Virus genome (UHGV): UHGV-0353285
Reading direction: 5' to 3' (one strand)
DNA from: a virus
DNA length: 16,819 nucleotides
The stretch's first letter is position 1; each line of letters opens with the position of its first letter. The notes below the pieces were generated by a model. The model saw only the letters and a list, made by a program, of their open reading frames with translations. It ran no database searches and was not told where the DNA came from. Positions 8,527 through 16,819 of the stretch are shown in pieces. A program made the position numbers and the translations under genes.

Positions 8527-9155
8527 CAATGACGAGCCAGAGTGTACTGCCTCCTAACGCAGTAACACCAGAAAGAGCGCTGGAAGCCGTTTTATCTCAT
8601 GTCGGCGATTTGCCTGGTGATATACGAATTATTAAAAATCCCGACCTGTGTCCCGCAAATTTGCTCCCATGGCTAGCGTGGGAATACGCGGTTACGTACT
8701 GGAATCCGGACTGGAGTGAGCGACAAAAACGCGAAATTATCAAAGCAGCCGCGTGGCAAAACAAACACCGCGGCACCCGTGGAGCTGTTGAACGCGCGTT
8801 ATTAACTGTCGGATTTAATAGCAAAATGCGCGAGTGGTTTGAAGCCACACCCAGGGACGACCCGTATACATTCGCAATTAAAATATATCTGCTAAAAAGT
8901 ATGGGGTTAGATTTAGAGCTATTGAATACATTTATTGCACAAATATTTGATGCAAAAAATTGTCGTTCATTATTAAAAGAAATAAATTTCGAAACTGGTG
9001 TTGATGGTGAGTTTTTTATAGCTGGTACACCTTACGCGAAAATAGGCGTAAATATACCGGCAGATGGTGATGGCGGCGTGAAATTAAATGGCGGATTATA
9101 TATATCAGGCTCACCAATTGTTAGTTTAAATGTGGAGATAGGGCCAAATGGCTGA
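8523..9155 (+). CDS. Baseplate/tail protein I (P2 gpI-like)
   Basis: 210-aa ORF with conserved N-terminal block (LLPWLAWEY.V..W...WSE..KR..I). Start is GTG at 8523 (overlapping the J stop) or ATG at 8529. The C-terminal third is markedly AT-rich. Confidence 0.82.
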   Translation: MTMTSQSVLPPNAVTPERALEAVLSHVGDLPGDIRIIKNPDLCPANLLPWLAWEYAVTYWNPDWSERQKREIIKAAAWQNKHRGTRGAVERALLTVGFNSKMREWFEATPRDDPYTFAIKIYLLKSMGLDLELLNTFIAQIFDAKNCRSLLKEINFETGVDGEFFIAGTPYAKIGVNIPADGDGGVKLNGGLYISGSPIVSLNVEIGPNG

Positions 9156-10065
9156 AAATAAAATTTACGCAGTACTGACAGACCGCGGCGCACAACTCGA
9201 AGCCGCTGCGCTGGCGTCAGGCGTGCCGGTGGTGCTGAACAAATTTGTTATCGGTGACGCGAACGGAAACGACGACGTAACACCGGATCCGGCGCGTACT
9301 GCATTAATTCACGAGACGTATCGCGGGGATATTAAATCGTCAGAAAATAGTGGTAACCAGGTTATCTTTACACTATACGTACCACCGGAAACCGGCGGCT
9401 ATACTATCCGTGAGGTGGGAATATTAACCGATAAAGGCGAACTGTACTCAGTTGCACGTTCACCGGATATTTTAAAACCTACGGACAGCAACGGCGCGCT
9501 GATTTCAATTACGTATAAATACACGCTCGCGGTGTCCAGCACGTCTACTGTTAACGTAGTTATTGATAACAGTAGTGGAATGAGTCAGGCCGATGCTGAT
9601 AAGCGATATTTGCAGATAAGAAAAAATTTATCTGAAATTAAAGACAAAGGCGCGGCGGCGCAAAAAACGGCACGGGAAAATATCGGCGTTAATCTTGATG
9701 ATTATTACACCAAAAAGGACGTAGACAATTTAATTGATGATAGCGATGACCTCGCACCGGTGGTGCCTGCGTTTGCAGCTGTCGGCTCAGTTGTTTATGC
9801 AGGATTTGGATTTAGTAACGAGACTGTTATGCACTATAAACCCGGGGATACTATTGCAGGTTCATTGATTTTTCCTGCGTATATATATAGAAAAAATGCG
9901 CAGTTAATTAGCGACGTTATTATTAGTATAGGATTTTCAGCAGAATCCCTGCCTGGCTTGTGGGCGCTCTCAGGGTATATGCCGTCGAGTTCCGAACCGA
10001 CAGACGGTAATGCCGAAGCTATTTTTACAGCGAGTTTTGCAACAAATTTCATTAGAGTAGCCTAA
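9148..10065 (+). CDS. Tail fibre protein (P2 gpH-like N-terminal baseplate-attachment domain, divergent C-terminus)
   Basis: 305-aa ORF with start overlapping the gpI stop. The N-terminal ~130 aa (KF.IGDANGNDD..PDP..TALIHE.YRG...S......V.FT...PPE.GGYTIREVGI.TDKGELY) resembles the conserved fibre N-terminus. The C-terminal half is AT-rich and unrecognised. Confidence 0.75.
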   Translation: MAENKIYAVLTDRGAQLEAAALASGVPVVLNKFVIGDANGNDDVTPDPARTALIHETYRGDIKSSENSGNQVIFTLYVPPETGGYTIREVGILTDKGELYSVARSPDILKPTDSNGALISITYKYTLAVSSTSTVNVVIDNSSGMSQADADKRYLQIRKNLSEIKDKGAAAQKTARENIGVNLDDYYTKKDVDNLIDDSDDLAPVVPAFAAVGSVVYAGFGFSNETVMHYKPGDTIAGSLIFPAYIYRKNAQLISDVIISIGFSAESLPGLWALSGYMPSSSEPTDGNAEAIFTASFATNFIRVA

Positions 10066-10070
10066 ATAAA

Positions 10071-10304
10071 ATGTTTAAAGATGATGATTTTTCAAATATA
10101 AAATTACCGCGCTATTCTAGCACATCAGGCAATAGTATTGATGTTAAATGTGATATCAGAGGTATCGGTAGTGATATTTTATTTACTGCATCTAAAACCG
10201 ATTCCACATTATATGGAAGGAATTTATACGAGCGAGCTTTGGCCGGTGAATTTGGTGATGTCGCTGAATATGTGGCTCCAATTATAATCGAATCAGGAGA
10301 GTAA
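10071..10304 (+). CDS. Hypothetical small protein (possible tail fibre assembly chaperone or accessory gene)
   Basis: 77-aa AT-rich ORF in the slot where P2-like tails carry the fibre assembly gene. No clear SD and no recognisable family. Confidence 0.3.
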   Translation: MFKDDDFSNIKLPRYSSTSGNSIDVKCDIRGIGSDILFTASKTDSTLYGRNLYERALAGEFGDVAEYVAPIIIESGE

Positions 10305-10309
10305 AAGAA

Positions 10310-10651
10310 ATGAGCACTAATTTTTTACATGGGCCTCGCACGCTCGAATACGACGACGGCACAAAAGAGATCAACACAGTCGATATTTCAGTTATCGGGA
10401 TTGTTGGTACTGCACCGGATGTTGGGCTAGGGGAGAGGGCATCATTAACGTGGGGATCACCGCTGGCAAATAATGTAGTCACCTTTTTCCCGGTCTATTA
10501 TGGGGATTACGGAAATAAATTTGCAGTTGAAATTATTAAGAAGGGTATTTCTGGAATTAAATACGGATATAGCACACTTCCAGACGGAACAATAAAATTA
10601 ACGCTCGGGACCGACAGCACAACAAGCCGGAACGGCTGGCGCAAGACGTAG
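10310..10651 (+). CDS. Small ORF carrying a tail sheath N-terminal motif (sheath 5' fragment or split sheath N-terminal part)
   Basis: 113-aa ORF with strong SD (AGGAGA, 10292-10297). The first ~37 residues (MSTNFLHGPRTLEYDDGTKEINTVDISVIGIVGTAPD) match the conserved N-terminal strand of contractile sheath proteins. The stop TAG (10649-10651) overlaps the GTG of the downstream sheath ORF. Confidence 0.5.
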   Translation: MSTNFLHGPRTLEYDDGTKEINTVDISVIGIVGTAPDVGLGERASLTWGSPLANNVVTFFPVYYGDYGNKFAVEIIKKGISGIKYGYSTLPDGTIKLTLGTDSTTSRNGWRKT

Positions 10652-11802
10652 TGACTCACGGTGAAGGGCGAACCGCTGAGGATTGTATTTGTGTAGGCAT
10701 TGACGAGGACAGTAAAAATGACGGAATTGTTTATCAGATGCCCGTCACGAGCCTGACGGGCGGTTCTGACGCTCCATTTCCAGTCAACATACCCACACTA
10801 ATTGCAGGTAGTCAGAAAAAAGCGGCGCTCCTGGGTGCAGCAGGCACTCTCCCCGCAGCCATCACTGATATTTTAAATCAGACAGATGCGCTAATTGTTG
10901 TTGTTCGCGTAGACGAAAACACAGACGCGACAAAAGAGCGTGAGAACGTAATCAACGGAATTAACGTTTTGTTAACATCGGGACAAATAAACCAGGTGAC
11001 TCCACGAATTTTGATTGCACCTGATTACAGCGCTAATGACGACGTCGCTGCCGCGCTGGAGGTAGTCACAAATAAATTACGTGGAGTCGGCTATATTGAT
11101 TCTCCACGCACGGCATCGCCCGCAGACGTCGTTAACCGCCGCCATAAATATAGCGCGCGCATGGAAATACTACGCCCGCGTGTGTTTTCCACGGGCGATC
11201 TCAGTGATCTGTCGCGTCCATATTCAGCTATCGCCGCTGGTTTACGAGCCAGAATTGACAACGAAAAAGGGTTTTGGTGGAGCAAATCTAATCAAAATAT
11301 TTATGGAATAACAGGGCTTGAGCAGGTTGATGATTTCATTATTGGCGAGACAAACTGCACGGCGAACCTGCTGAACGCTAGTCAGGTAAGCACCATCATT
11401 CGCTATGATGGATTCCGACATTGGGGTAACTATCTGTGCAGCCTGGATCCGCAGTGGTCGTTTGAATGCGTTCGTCGGACAGCTGACGTAATTGAAGATT
11501 CTATAGCCCGGGCAATGATGACAGATTTTATTGATCGCCCGATAGACCTGCATCTCGGAACAGACGTTGTCGAGTCGATAAACGCATATCTGCACAAATT
11601 AGAGGAGCAGGGTGCGATTAACGGAGGGCGTGCGTGGTTAGACGGTGAGTTGAATACAAAAGAAAGTCTGGCCGCTGGTAATCTTTATATTAATGTTGAT
11701 TTTGGTCCGAAATCTCCGGCACAAACAATTACGTTAATGTACCGCATTAATAATGACTATACAGTTGAAGCGCTGGCCTCCCTTTTTAAAGAAACAGCCT
11801 GA
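10651..11802 (+). CDS. Tail sheath protein (P2 FI-like)
   Basis: 383-aa ORF with sheath-like blocks throughout (FPVNIPTLI.GSQKKAA, ALIVVVRVDE, PRILIAPDYS, LRARID.EKGFWWS.SNQ.I.GITG, C.ANLLNA..V.TIIRYDGFR.WGN, LYINVDFGP). GTG start with weak SD; the frame is open upstream only back to 10573. Confidence 0.88.
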   Translation: MTHGEGRTAEDCICVGIDEDSKNDGIVYQMPVTSLTGGSDAPFPVNIPTLIAGSQKKAALLGAAGTLPAAITDILNQTDALIVVVRVDENTDATKERENVINGINVLLTSGQINQVTPRILIAPDYSANDDVAAALEVVTNKLRGVGYIDSPRTASPADVVNRRHKYSARMEILRPRVFSTGDLSDLSRPYSAIAAGLRARIDNEKGFWWSKSNQNIYGITGLEQVDDFIIGETNCTANLLNASQVSTIIRYDGFRHWGNYLCSLDPQWSFECVRRTADVIEDSIARAMMTDFIDRPIDLHLGTDVVESINAYLHKLEEQGAINGGRAWLDGELNTKESLAAGNLYINVDFGPKSPAQTITLMYRINNDYTVEALASLFKETA

Positions 11803-12757: not shown

Positions 12758-14375
12758 AACGCAGGTTGTATTTGGGGGGCGAATAGACCCGTCGTTTCGG
12801 CGCGGTACAACAGAACTCAACGACGCCATTCGGCAGACGTCGTCTACTGTCGGAAAATTAACGAAAAGCCAGGATAAATTAAAAGACAAAATCGCAGCAA
12901 TGAAACTGGCGGGTAAAGACGTTTCTGATTTATCTGCTCAGTATCAAAAGCTGGACCGTCGGATAAAAGCGACAACACAGGACCAGGAAGCTCTGAATAC
13001 TCAGCTCGCCAAAAAACAGCGGCTGGAGAATTGGACGGGGCGCGCAAAAGGGGCTGCAAAATGGGGAGGGCGAGCCGCCGCAGGTGCGGTGAGGGCCACG
13101 GGACGGGGTATCAAATGGGGGACGCTAGGGGCTGTGGGGCTGCTCGGCGGCGCGGCTGCTGGCGCGCTGGCAATGAATGCAGAGACGTCAGAAAAGCTCG
13201 GTCTGGCGAAGTCCTACGGTGTTGGCATCGAAAAATACGCTGCGTGGGAAAATATTGGTAAAGCTGCAGGGCTGAATGGCGAAAACGTAGGAGATCTGTC
13301 GGAGGAGTTGACTAATAAAATCGGGGAGGTTGGAAACGAAAAAAACCTGAATCCCATGTTGTTTCAAATTGGCCTGACAAAAAAACGGATGGCTAAATGG
13401 GATCGAGAAAAACAGTTCAATGAAGTTATGCGGCGTATCTCTGAAATGAAGGATGATCAACAGGCGGCGAGTCTGGCTGATCAGCTCATGGGGGGAGAGG
13501 CTAATAAAATAATGACCTATATGCGGGCGACTGGTAAAAGCTGGGAGCAGACTATGTCGGACGCTCAAAAATCGAACCTGCTAACGAAAGAAGGGGCTGA
13601 GGGGGCAGCGCGCGCGCACGTATCCGTCACGAATCTATGGGGGGCAATTACATCGGGGTTGGCAGATACGCTCGGTAAAATCGGGGGGGAACTCGCGCCG
13701 ACGTTTGACGCTATGCGAGACGAGCTGGCATCCTGGTTTAAAGAGAATCAAGGGGGGGTTGTTGATAGTATTAAAGAATGGGTTAAGCCAGAAAATATGA
13801 AAAAAATGTGGGAGGGGATAGTCAGTTTTGGCGAGGCGTGCGTTAAATTCGGAAAAATAATTTGGGCAGTAGCAAAAAAACTTGAGTGGTTAATACCGGA
13901 CGAGAAAACAGACGAGGAACAGCGCGTATATAACGAAGAATATAATAAAGCGTATCAGGAATTCATGGATAGTGGTGGTAAATATTCACCGAACCCAGGA
14001 CTGGCAGCAGATAATGTAGCAAAAGCAAAGGCCGACGAAGCCGTAGATAATATGCGACACCCTGAACGTCTTGCTCGTGCAAAATCACAGGCTGAATCAA
14101 TGCTCTCGTTTGCTAACCCGTTTACTGGATTAATAAATAAAGACTCAACGCCTGAATCACAAAACTCAGCAACCTTGAATATTGACGCGCTGAGACAGGC
14201 AGTCGCAACTCCAGCGCCAGAGCAAAACAATAAAATTGAAATCAATATTATCGGAGCGGCAGATCCACAATCAACACAGCAGGCTGCTGCATCGGGTGTG
14301 CTCGACGGGTTGAGACAAGTTGCGAGTTCGTATAATCGTGGCGCGATGTTTGATAAACCAGCGGCGGCGGGGTGA
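12735..14375 (+). CDS. Tail tape measure protein
   Basis: 546-aa ORF downstream of the chaperone with GAGG SD. It has a coiled-coil-like N-terminus, a Gly/Ala-rich hydrophobic segment (GTLGAVGLLGGAAAGALAM) and a long alpha-helical, low-complexity body. Confidence 0.8.
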   Translation: MAISQNFKTQVVFGGRIDPSFRRGTTELNDAIRQTSSTVGKLTKSQDKLKDKIAAMKLAGKDVSDLSAQYQKLDRRIKATTQDQEALNTQLAKKQRLENWTGRAKGAAKWGGRAAAGAVRATGRGIKWGTLGAVGLLGGAAAGALAMNAETSEKLGLAKSYGVGIEKYAAWENIGKAAGLNGENVGDLSEELTNKIGEVGNEKNLNPMLFQIGLTKKRMAKWDREKQFNEVMRRISEMKDDQQAASLADQLMGGEANKIMTYMRATGKSWEQTMSDAQKSNLLTKEGAEGAARAHVSVTNLWGAITSGLADTLGKIGGELAPTFDAMRDELASWFKENQGGVVDSIKEWVKPENMKKMWEGIVSFGEACVKFGKIIWAVAKKLEWLIPDEKTDEEQRVYNEEYNKAYQEFMDSGGKYSPNPGLAADNVAKAKADEAVDNMRHPERLARAKSQAESMLSFANPFTGLINKDSTPESQNSATLNIDALRQAVATPAPEQNNKIEINIIGAADPQSTQQAAASGVLDGLRQVASSYNRGAMFDKPAAAG

Positions 14376-14800
14376 CAATGAGTGATGCAATAAACGGTGC
14401 TGAGGATATCATGCTCGGCCTGGGTGATTTCATTTTTGCTATATCAACAGTAGCGTACAACAAACTGCAACGTAGTGACGCCTGGCGCTGGGCTCAGCAA
14501 ACACGATTCGGGAAAAACGACGCGTTGCAGATAACCGGACGACCGAACCCCACAATCACTATCGATGGAAAGATAAACGCTTTATTTCTTGACGGGTGCG
14601 GCGTCGGCCTGTTGACAGATTTGCGTGCGCTTGGGAACACGGGAGAACCCCAGCAGCTAGTGCTGGGGACCGGGGAGGTGAAAGGGTACTGGGTGCTGCG
14701 AGAACTAACTGAAACGCAAAACAGCTTTTTGATGGGCGGAACCCCAAAATCGCAGGACTTTTCACTCACGCTCGAATATTATGGAGCTTCGCTAGATTAA
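14372..14800 (+). CDS. Tail protein U (P2 gpU-like)
   Basis: 142-aa ORF overlapping the tape measure stop (GTGA). gpU-like motifs (LGLG.F.F, Y..LQR...WRWA.Q.R.G) and the conserved position after the tape measure. Start is GTG 14372 or ATG 14378. Confidence 0.82.
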   Translation: MTMSDAINGAEDIMLGLGDFIFAISTVAYNKLQRSDAWRWAQQTRFGKNDALQITGRPNPTITIDGKINALFLDGCGVGLLTDLRALGNTGEPQQLVLGTGEVKGYWVLRELTETQNSFLMGGTPKSQDFSLTLEYYGASLD

Positions 14801-14973
14801 TATAAAATCAAGCGCTACCAGAGCACTTAACAAGTATAAAAATAATAAAAAAAACTACGAACATAAATGTAAAACAACCTGATGGTATTTTTTTTGACGC
14901 CGAAATACTAATACCTCTCCGACTACTAAAATTAATTCTCATTATGAAATCCTTTTAATTAATGGGGCCCCAA

Positions 14974-15186
14974 ATGATTACATACACTACACGGGACGGT
15001 GACCGTCTCGATCAGATCTGCCTTGCTGTCTACGGGAGAACAGCAAAAACGACAGAAACCGTGTTATATCAGGTTTTAAATTACGGCGTAACGGATATGT
15101 GTGCCGTGTTTCGTGCAGGAGAAAAAATTGTTTTACCAGAAATCGACCCCGAACCGGTTAAAAAAGAAACGCAATTATGGGATTGA
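14974..15186 (+). CDS. Tail protein X (P2 gpX-like, LysM-type)
   Basis: The frame is open from ATG 14962, but ATG 14974 (MITYTTRDGDRLDQIC..YGRT...ETVL) has the better G-rich SD and matches the gpX N-terminus. About 70 aa, ending ...QLWD, typical of gpX. Confidence 0.8.
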   Translation: MITYTTRDGDRLDQICLAVYGRTAKTTETVLYQVLNYGVTDMCAVFRAGEKIVLPEIDPEPVKKETQLWD

Positions 15187-15189
15187 TGA

Positions 15190-16233
15190 ATGAGTGATTA
15201 CGTAAATACTGGCGTGGAAGCATGGAAGCCCAATTTTTATATATCTGCTGATAATGAAAACATCACGGATAAAATAAGAAAAGGTTTGATCAATATCACG
15301 CTCACAGATTATGGCGGTTCGAGTAAACAGACAGACGAATTACGCGTAGCAATCGTTTCTGAAACTCTGAAAATTCCGGCCCGTGGCGTGAAGATCAGTG
15401 TCGGACTCGGTTTCGGTAATCAGATAATTGATAAGGGTATATACATCGTCGACGGTGCGAGCAGTGGCGGTGAACCTCGGGTAGTTGATTTCACAGCAAA
15501 AGCGGCTCCGATGAACGCGTCAAAAGGCTCTCCGACAGTTCAGAGCAAAAAAACTCGCTCCTGGAGCGACGTCACTGTCAGCAATATCGTTGCAACAATA
15601 GCGAGCGATAACGGGCTAAAACCACGTGTATCAAAGCGGTTTGCAGACAATATTATCACGCAACTCGATCAAGTCGGCGAGTCAGATATGCACCTGATGT
15701 CGAGACTAGCAACACGATTCGATGCGGTGAGTAAACCCGCGGGAGGGTACTGGATATTCCTGCCGCGCGGCGCGGGCGAATCTGTTAGCGGAGCGCCGCT
15801 TCAGCACTACACGCTCACGCGTCGTGATAACTCCAGCTGGGGTTATTCACGAAACGGACAAAGTGGCGATAGTGGTAGCGGTGGCGAAAATCCGGAACCG
15901 ACGTATCTGATTAAATATCACGACACAGCAACTGGGCAGATCAAAGAATTGCGGACAGGTAGTGGCGGCGATCCTGTCATTGAATGGCCGGCAGTTGAGC
16001 CGTCGCTCGACGCAGCGAAAGAAGCTGCACCAGGGCTCAAGGGCGGTGCAGCTAAAAAAGAGTTCTCTATGACGTACACGACGCCAGCGACGCTCGATTT
16101 AGTGTCGCTGACAGCAGAATGCAAAGTCACAACTCAAGGATTCGGGACCGAGGAGGACCGGGACTGGACTATCAACACGCTGAGCCTGACGCTTGCTGAA
16201 AACGGCTTTTCGGTTCGACTGTCTCTGGAGTAA
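15190..16233 (+). CDS. Tail protein D (P2 gpD / late control gene D family)
   Basis: 347-aa ORF immediately after X (stop/start TGATGAATG), in the conserved U-X-D arrangement of P2-like and R-pyocin tail clusters. Size and sequence are gpD-like. Confidence 0.82.
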   Translation: MSDYVNTGVEAWKPNFYISADNENITDKIRKGLINITLTDYGGSSKQTDELRVAIVSETLKIPARGVKISVGLGFGNQIIDKGIYIVDGASSGGEPRVVDFTAKAAPMNASKGSPTVQSKKTRSWSDVTVSNIVATIASDNGLKPRVSKRFADNIITQLDQVGESDMHLMSRLATRFDAVSKPAGGYWIFLPRGAGESVSGAPLQHYTLTRRDNSSWGYSRNGQSGDSGSGGENPEPTYLIKYHDTATGQIKELRTGSGGDPVIEWPAVEPSLDAAKEAAPGLKGGAAKKEFSMTYTTPATLDLVSLTAECKVTTQGFGTEEDRDWTINTLSLTLAENGFSVRLSLE

Positions 16234-16399
16234 ATTGGCTCGGCGAGCCGGTGGCGGGTATGAATTTAGTATTAACGACTGTCGACTGCAAACGGCACCT
16301 GCGATATTTTTAGGCGTAAGCCGGAGAACGAAGAGTCTCTGGTGCTGAACGTTGTTATCGTTAGATGCTGACATTTTTTAATATTGGGAGTTTTCAAAC

Positions 16400-16819
16400 A
16401 TGGTCGTTAAAAATGCTCTTGCCTGTGGGATTATGCTTACTCTTGTCGGTTGTGCTACAAAACCTGTCTCAAATGAACAAGCCACTCCTGTTCCTGAAAA
16501 ACAAATTATCAGTACCGTGTTACTCGAAAAACGAGACGGTACGGGAGAGGTGATCATCAAGCGTGACTCGGGGTTCTTTGGAAGCGCGTGCTTTTCCCGT
16601 GTTTATGTTGATGGTAAAGAGGTGGCAGATTTAGGTACAGCTCAGAAAGTCGTTGTATACCCAACGATTGGTGATCATGTCTTCAGCGCGTGGCCTAAAG
16701 GGGTATGTGGCGGTGGTATGAGTGAGCAGGCGGGTAAGGTGACAACAGATCGTACTTTGATGTATCGCATAGGGTATGGATCAAACGGTGAATATGGCAT
16801 TCACCCAACTGCGTTTTAA
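16400..16819 (+). CDS. Putative lipoprotein (signal peptide with lipobox LVGC); phage moron or flanking host gene
   Basis: 139-aa ORF with GGGAG SD 9 nt upstream. The N-terminus (MVVKNALACGIMLTLVGCATKP) is a typical lipoprotein signal peptide with the Cys at the cleavage site. TAA stop at the window end. Confidence 0.6.
   Translation: MVVKNALACGIMLTLVGCATKPVSNEQATPVPEKQIISTVLLEKRDGTGEVIIKRDSGFFGSACFSRVYVDGKEVADLGTAQKVVVYPTIGDHVFSAWPKGVCGGGMSEQAGKVTTDRTLMYRIGYGSNGEYGIHPTAF

Follow-up and report, generated by a model that had tools for sequence, protein, structure and literature searches.

An AT-rich gap separating the tail genes U and X of an Escherichia coli prophage is probably the 5' stub of a deleted antisense cassette

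The U-X interval and its prophage setting

The DNA analysed here, a stretch of 16,819 nucleotides from UHGV virus genome UHGV-0353285 (hereafter the window), corresponds to the late region of a prophage of E. coli, in which lambda-like head genes (encoding the portal, an S49 protease, a decoration protein, the major capsid protein and FI) are combined with a P2-like contractile tail module. From position 10297 onwards the window is 99.3% identical to the TUM13936 prophage that adjoins yecA/tyrP, and positions 14700-15050 are 100% identical there, with the same U/X boundaries in the RefSeq annotation. The tail genes bordering the interval belong to well-defined families (Table 1). The gpU ORF can be read from a GTG at 14372, the RefSeq start being the ATG at 14378, and the gpX start is backed by homologous N-termini in W284 and Salmonella. 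The latter gene is preceded by a Shine-Dalgarno sequence, GGGG at 14965-14968, which lies 5 nt before the start codon and within the palindrome GGGGCCCC. Pfam support for the next gene, gpD (15190-16233), is weak.

The sequence-only reading of this DNA had described an AT-rich gap of about 160 bp between gpU and gpX. The AT-richness stands, with a GC content of 30.1% against 49.6% for the whole window, and the length has to be corrected to 173 bp. No other part of the window is as poor in GC: only 0.7% of all 173-nt segments reach so low a value, and every one of these overlaps the gap. It is also the longest intergenic gap within the window. The remainder do not exceed 60 nt, except for the E-T gap of 108 nt, which is the usual E' frameshift region, and the gap of 166 nt between gpD and the next ORF. 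In distant relatives with the gene order T-U-X-D (ECOO78 and the Burkholderia phage vB_HM795) the U and X genes overlap. The A- and T-runs that had been remarked upon in the gap could be located as two homopolymers of eight (Table 1).

Table 1. Features in and around the U-X gap (positions in the window)
Feature	Position	Strand	Remarks
gpU tail gene	14378..14800	+	PF06995, E 3e-31; left border of the slot; TAA at 14798-14800
U-X gap	14801..14973		173 bp, 30% GC; cargo slot between U and X
Deletion junction	14801..14817		17 nt of unknown origin, minus strand TAGCGCTTGATTTTATA; replaces ~1.1 kb
Terminator-like hairpin, then UUUUAUAUU	14807..14831	-	5' arm in stub, 3' arm in junction
44-codon ORF with TGA stop (14810-14808)	14808..14942	-	last two codons and stop are junction sequence
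Stub: ATG (14942-14940), first 125 nt of the 166-aa gene	14818..14942	-	phmmer, BLASTP, DNA alignment
A8 on plus (T8 on minus)	14847..14854		homopolymer run in the gap
T8 on plus (A8 on minus)	14888..14895		minus-strand codons Ser16-Lys17-Lys18-Ile19
TTGACG	14894..14899	+	no -10 hexamer at 15-19 nt
Former cassette leader	14943..14973	-	31 nt; aligns with the 33-nt X-to-gene-1 spacer of L019/L022
Protospacer 14980..14949 with 5' PAM ATG 14983..14981	14949..14983	-	exact type I-E spacer match
gpX tail gene	14974..15186	+	PF05489, E 6e-16; ATG at 14974; right border of the slot

Several observations concern the rest of the prophage. The sheath gene (10310-11802) carries a 1-nt deletion near ~10625 relative to TUM13936 (ACAACAA-GCCGG versus ACAACAACGCCGG), which yields two ORFs, 10310-10651 and 10651-11802; this points either to a tail defect of the prophage in the window or to an error in sequencing. 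The tail-fibre region (9652-10297) has no match in TUM13936, though the rest of the window does, and its ORFs are split (9148-10065 and 10071-10304). In TUM13936 a second, partial copy of the prophage head region (L002 29444-36351) lies ~9 kb downstream of the first prophage. Its terminase gene is split, its portal gene is frameshifted, and the copy abuts a truncated araH. At the right end of the window (16234-16819), the 166-nt gap after gpD is followed by an ORF of 139 aa without a family match; in TUM13936 the host gene yecA comes next. W284 and ETEC1738 have a gene for a tail-fibre N-terminal domain within 5 nt after D, and thus the right end of the prophage is variable as well.

Promoter signals in the gap

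A promoter or regulatory site inside the operon was one of the options left by the sequence-only reading, which had also noticed that the TTGACG of the gap lacks a properly spaced -10 element; the latter was borne out (Table 1). The prediction with sigma-70 and phage late-activator models that it had proposed as a check was run and gave nothing above background in the gap. A sigma-70 promoter should have -35 and -10 hexamers 16-18 nt apart and a score above background; in consensus and PWM scans of both strands of the gap no sigma-70-like site exceeded the background. The consensus scan returned zero sites on the plus strand, and the best plus-strand PWM scores of 7.0-7.3 should be read against a window in which a score of 6 or more is reached by 273 sites, and one of 8 or more by 67. 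P2 late promoters controlled by Ogr/Delta have a TGT-N12-ACA dyad upstream of a weak promoter; such a dyad has 0 matches in the whole window. These scans lend no support to the promoter option; being computational, they leave room for transcription starts in the gap.

The best promoter-like site in the vicinity, TTGAGA-15-TATAAT at 14310-14336 on the plus strand, has a PWM score of 12.8, a level (at least 10) reached by only 10 sites in the whole window. It falls within the tape-measure gene, at its 3' end shortly before U, and the 15-nt spacing is suboptimal.

A promoter or activator site in the gap that drives or tunes X-D on the plus strand would be in line with the AT-richness of the DNA, with the TTGACG and with a gene X that is not coupled to U but preceded by a Shine-Dalgarno sequence of its own. 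We nevertheless consider it very improbable: the scores lie in the bulk of the window background, the dyad is absent, and sister prophages (see below) keep X-D with unrelated coding DNA in the same place, so that X-D needs no conserved sequence there.

A minus-strand ORF related to a longer Salmonella protein

The earlier statement that the gap holds no convincing ORF overlooked the minus strand, on which an ATG-initiated ORF of 44 codons runs from 14942 to 14808. An AAGGA sequence (14954-14950) sits 7 nt upstream of its ATG. The ORF codes for a charged N-terminus followed by a hydrophobic membrane or signal segment with a 17-residue hydrophobic stretch, and an ORF of such length arose in 50 of 5000 dinucleotide-preserving shuffles of the gap (1%). 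It is labelled a hypothetical protein in three of four phage records, and PGAP annotates nothing there. A search for the terminal inverted repeats of a mobile element gave only weak AT-rich matches.

A word-indexed protein search with the 44-aa ORF returned only the element itself and frameshift variants of it; contig L008 was left out because it is error-ridden. An exhaustive HMMER search of 1.84 billion protein representatives, by phmmer, found a protein of 166 aa that matches residues 1-43, with an E-value of 1.1e-6 library-wide. By BLASTP the ORF is identical to P0006, a relative of that protein, at 27 of 42 positions (64%), ungapped. A type I toxin, as one might read a small hydrophobic ORF, was dropped as a candidate since the ORF is the N-terminus of a longer protein.

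The gene for the 166-aa protein is found in rare Salmonella prophages. There it occupies the interval between X and U in antisense orientation to the tail genes, with a second gene, for a protein of 220-236 aa, behind it. Intact loci were found in Salmonella enterica (L019-L023, from serovar Seattle and subsp. salamae) and in an IMG/VR contig (L041). The two-gene cassette (L019 3968-5233) fits the interval tightly: 33 nt separate it from the start codon of X, and at its other end the stop codons of gene 2 and U overlap. Read on the minus strand, the gap is in register with the Salmonella loci, from X through a leader of 31-33 nt, the ATG and the A8 tract down to TGCTCTGG at 14818. The coding DNA over this distance measures 125 nt in the window and in Salmonella alike, with an identity of 74-79%. 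Beyond 14818 the alignment resumes only inside U, skipping 1,118 nt of the Salmonella locus (L019 4126-5243). What has been lost thus comprises codons 43-166 of gene 1 together with the whole of gene 2, with end points that are set against loci ~25% diverged, no full-length cassette of the E. coli type having been found. None of the 5,426 complete E. coli genomes contains the deleted part of the cassette. The 17-nt junction shows no similarity to the 3' end of the Salmonella cassette. The intact cassette has a GC content of 33% and the stub one of 30%, against 49-52% for the flanks. The scar of a lost gene, which had been the last of the options offered for this gap, is hence borne out, in that its minus strand is co-linear with the 5' UTR and the first 42 codons of a 166-aa Salmonella gene.

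One could argue that the gap is an unrelated AT-rich insertion and that its likeness to the Salmonella gene is a matter of chance among low-complexity hydrophobic sequences, as the match spans just 42-43 residues and is partly hydrophobic. This is extremely unlikely. The polar N-terminus (MRIN.SSR...S.SASKKIPSGC) and a KCSG motif are matched too, the similarity continues into the non-coding leader, and the slot, the strand and the distance from X are all equal.

When viral and metagenome contigs were scanned for the conserved 17-mer TCAAAAAAAATACCATC, most hits were random; the scans added one intact locus of the Salmonella type (L041) and further alleles of the stub. Distant DNA searches with the gap against phages and plasmids gave only chance AT-rich matches. 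The A8 tract at 14888-14895, which encodes the two lysines of codons 17-18, is conserved in Salmonella (L019 4047-4054; L022) despite a divergence of ~25% around it, and it is variable in length among the E. coli alleles; it could be a slippage-prone switch or a coincidence.

Both cassette proteins have an N-terminal hydrophobic helix or membrane segment. Searches of Pfam, PHROGs, PADLOC and NCBIfam with the stub and the two proteins gave no significant match; for gene 2 there is a weak WCOB match with an E-value of 0.004, below the cut-off. Each of the two families consists of only two 90%-identity clusters among 5.8 billion, and the AlphaFold models of the proteins are unusable (mean pLDDT 36 and 40). 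From the position and strand of the cassette, and from the company of the Imm-like allele described below, a role in superinfection exclusion at the membrane is at most a reasonable guess.

RNA structures

The sequence-only reading had also suggested a small RNA. With Rfam 15 at a permissive threshold the best scores for the gap were 14-18 bits, against thresholds of 43-66, with E-values above 1. The gap does not fold better than its shuffles (z-scores of -0.09 for the plus strand and -0.26 for the minus strand). The small-RNA option thus finds no backing in these computations. A sense-strand intrinsic terminator or attenuator, i.e. a GC-rich hairpin followed by a U-run, was not found between U and X.

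The minus strand does contain a terminator-like hairpin with a U-run (14831-14807), at which a small or antisense RNA could end that acts on the tail-operon mRNA or in trans. Antisense RNAs are indeed known inside prophage late genes, e.g. STnc6030 of BTP1, which mediates superinfection exclusion (PMC7067206). Since the 5' arm of the hairpin is stub and its 3' arm is junction, the structure was created by the deletion and is to be seen as its by-product. There is moreover no Rfam match, no promoter and no folding energy beyond that of the shuffles, while the sequence diversity is too small for a covariation test. We regard such an RNA as highly unlikely.

Variation of the stub in E. coli

The gap is present in 435 of the 5,426 complete E. 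coli genomes, in most of them once, and in 424 of the 435 with an identity of at least 99%; O25:H4 strains are among the carriers. Five substitutions were seen in the stub, of which three are non-synonymous (M27I, F28L and G42D) and two synonymous. In a 169-nt allele the A8 tract at 14888-14895 is reduced to A7, which cuts the ORF to 28 aa; this allele occurs in the complete genome of ETEC1738 and in an independent IMG/VR contig. It has further lost 3 nt of the AATAAT adjoining the 14847-14854 run, and in L007 that run is one base shorter. Both of the latter changes alter the frame at the C-terminus of the ORF. In the 169-nt and L007 alleles U, X and D are intact. The ORF is therefore unprotected: one allele truncates it and the other shifts its C-terminus.

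The prophages that carry the gap are mosaic, with breakpoints at the gap edges (14372-15789 versus L001, L006, L009-L015 and L018). Among the E. coli prophages the stub differs by 0.6-2.3%, compared with up to 7.5% in U and 6.6% in X for the more diverged flank of each comparison; a shared gap allele can thus be joined to versions of U that differ by up to 7.5% and to versions of X that differ by up to 6.6%. The stub is always accompanied by a window-like flank, which places the breakpoints at the stub edges. This pattern suggests that a single young deletion allele has been spread by recombination, rather than that the sequence is held by constraint, although the low divergence could also be taken as a sign of constraint instead of recency.

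A rival reading takes the stub for a gene that still works and makes a single-pass membrane peptide of 44 aa from the minus strand, kept for its benefit to the lysogen, e.g. by superinfection exclusion in the manner of Imm-type cargo. The elements of a gene are present in the right order, from an ATG with AAGGA 7 nt upstream, through the 17-residue hydrophobic segment, to a 3' hairpin with a U-run; the ORF is longer than in 99% of the shuffles, and at least 424 of the 435 gap-carrying genomes have it intact, with low divergence. The same gene-like order, and the improbability of an ORF of this length, are among the points that count against a scar. We consider a working gene rather unlikely all the same. 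The ORF corresponds only to the signal or anchor segment of a protein of 166 aa, natural alleles are frameshifted while U, X and D are intact, and the short form has no homologue outside the element among 5.8 billion clusters. No promoter above background was found upstream of the ORF, either in the window or in the intact loci L019 and L022. The carriers are mostly near-identical, which leaves the intactness of the ORF with little weight, and T-rich DNA yields hydrophobic ORFs in any frame.

A CRISPR spacer against the stub allele

The right-hand part of the gap also matches a CRISPR spacer. A 32-nt spacer from the iap-proximal type I-E array of E. coli GCM39-10-2-9-3-1 (L004 1501-1532) is identical to 14949-14980 over all 32 positions (Table 1), with a canonical repeat on the crRNA strand of the spacer. 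The ATG that adjoins the protospacer is a permissive type I-E PAM. The matched DNA covers the leader of the stub together with the first 7 nt of X, and is thus specific to the stub allele. The spacer is the only CRISPR-annotated match among the matches listed, and its exactness shows that an E. coli type I-E system has sampled phages with this very allele.

Alternative cargo between U and X

A comparison of homologous U-X junctions, which had likewise been proposed for this gap, revealed three cargo states: the stub, the two-gene cassette and an Imm-like gene. The last of these is a minus-strand gene of 86 aa belonging to PF14373 (Imm_superinfect), in a U-X interval of 237-242 bp; it is found in W284 and 17 other complete E. 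coli genomes, in E. whittamii and in two IMG/VR contigs (L016 and L017). The W284 gene scores 42.5 bits against PF14373, at a cut-off of 27.9, and the ORF of the window has no match to this family. By subtraction, roughly 10 further E. coli genomes match the flanks at 95% or more and carry neither the gap nor a match to the Imm allele. Since sister prophages have a T4 Imm-like gene here, the U-X interval is a site at which cargo is swapped.

We also considered the gap as a decayed Imm allele, and rejected this because the two alleles share no residual similarity: the homology between the window and the Imm-type sisters stops exactly at the U stop codon and restarts exactly at the X ATG.

The Imm-like gene occupies positions 3074-3334 of L003 and 2908-3168 of L005, and is present in L016 and L017 as well. 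The Imm-type sisters carry the palindrome GAGGCCTC at the place equivalent to that of the palindrome before gpX in the window. It could serve as the Shine-Dalgarno sequence both for X on the plus strand and, on the minus strand, for the Imm-like gene when read from Met7.

Origin and meaning of the gap

Taken together, the gap is probably what remains of the 5' end of an AT-rich accessory cassette of two genes, which had entered the tail operon between U and X in antisense orientation. The analysis shows homology and co-linearity with the Salmonella gene, which lies in the same slot and on the same strand; it also shows the deletion, a base composition foreign to the surroundings, and the T4 Imm-like gene that sister prophages carry as alternative cargo. 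In the intact Salmonella form the cassette, with its genes of 166 aa and 220-236 aa, fills the U-X interval tightly. In the lineage of the window a deletion of ~1.1 kb took everything past codon 42 of gene 1, leaving 31 nt of leader, 125 nt of coding sequence and the 17-nt junction. The remnant may now be functionless except for its right-hand ~10 nt, which would serve as the ribosome-binding site of X, a gene that depends on such a site now that its coupling to U is lost. Judged from the sequence, the GGGG at 14965-14968 is probably the sole functional element of the gap DNA. The gap would persist as a single young allele that is carried along by recombination among related prophages.

A more far-reaching proposal would be that the U-X interval is an undescribed hotspot for genes of superinfection exclusion or defence that act at the membrane, that the orphan Salmonella cassette is a new exclusion system, and that the E. 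coli stub is kept since its 44-aa anchor peptide or an antisense transcript still acts, e.g. on the translation of X or on an incoming phage. As a whole we think this unlikely.

The deletion of an antisense cassette explains an odd non-coding island in a prophage of 435 of 5,426 complete E. coli genomes without new regulation. Two annotations may be corrected accordingly: what phage records list as a 44-aa "hypothetical protein" is a fragment of a gene, and RefSeq's "empty" spacer is a pseudogene remnant. The intact occupants of the interval, i.e. the T4 Imm-like gene and the orphan pair of membrane proteins, are candidates for phage exclusion tests.

Comparison with known systems

Morons are known from the late operons of prophages (Juhala 2000 and Cumby 2012, both as cited in bioRxiv 10.1101/2024.10.15.618418), and an antisense orientation to the prophage lytic genes is characteristic of accessory loci (PMC7067206). 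The U-X cargo resembles these in that it is additional DNA at the border of a gene, which only some of the close relatives carry, in its foreign, low GC content (30% for the stub and 33% for the intact cassette, with flanks of 49-52%), and in its orientation antisense to the lytic genes, with a superinfection-immunity gene among the alternative cargo. It differs in that only a truncated stub is left here, with 42 of the 166 codons of gene 1 and nothing of gene 2, and in that neither the stub nor the intact cassette appears to have room for a promoter and terminator of its own, given the 33 nt upstream and a stop codon that overlaps that of U. As to the promoter and terminator that would flank such cargo, no promoter above background was found upstream of the ORF in the window or in L019 and L022; the minus-strand hairpin is terminator-like but was made by the deletion.

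The hotspots of P2-type phages listed in a recent preprint survey are old/tin, Z/fun and a third site between a tail gene and the CI repressor gene. Like these, the U-X interval is a fixed site, flanked by conserved structural genes, at which unrelated AT-rich accessory genes are exchanged, and Z/fun likewise lies among tail genes. The interval is not one of the three hotspots of that preprint, however, and only three cargo states were seen here; moreover, the phage of the window combines lambda-like head genes with a P2-like tail. As to the T4 Imm-type proteins (PF14373), a gene of this family occupies the exact slot and orientation in the sister prophages, whereas the ORF of the window has no match to it and the DNA is unrelated to that allele.

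Finally, the stub is comparable to the pseudogenes of decaying prophages, being a 5' gene fragment that remained after an internal deletion and having frameshift variants that segregate; the sheath gene of the window is frameshifted too. It differs from those in being unusually uniform across prophages that are otherwise mosaic. The U-X gap thus adds one more case to a familiar class, that of accessory genes left truncated in the cargo slots of prophages.
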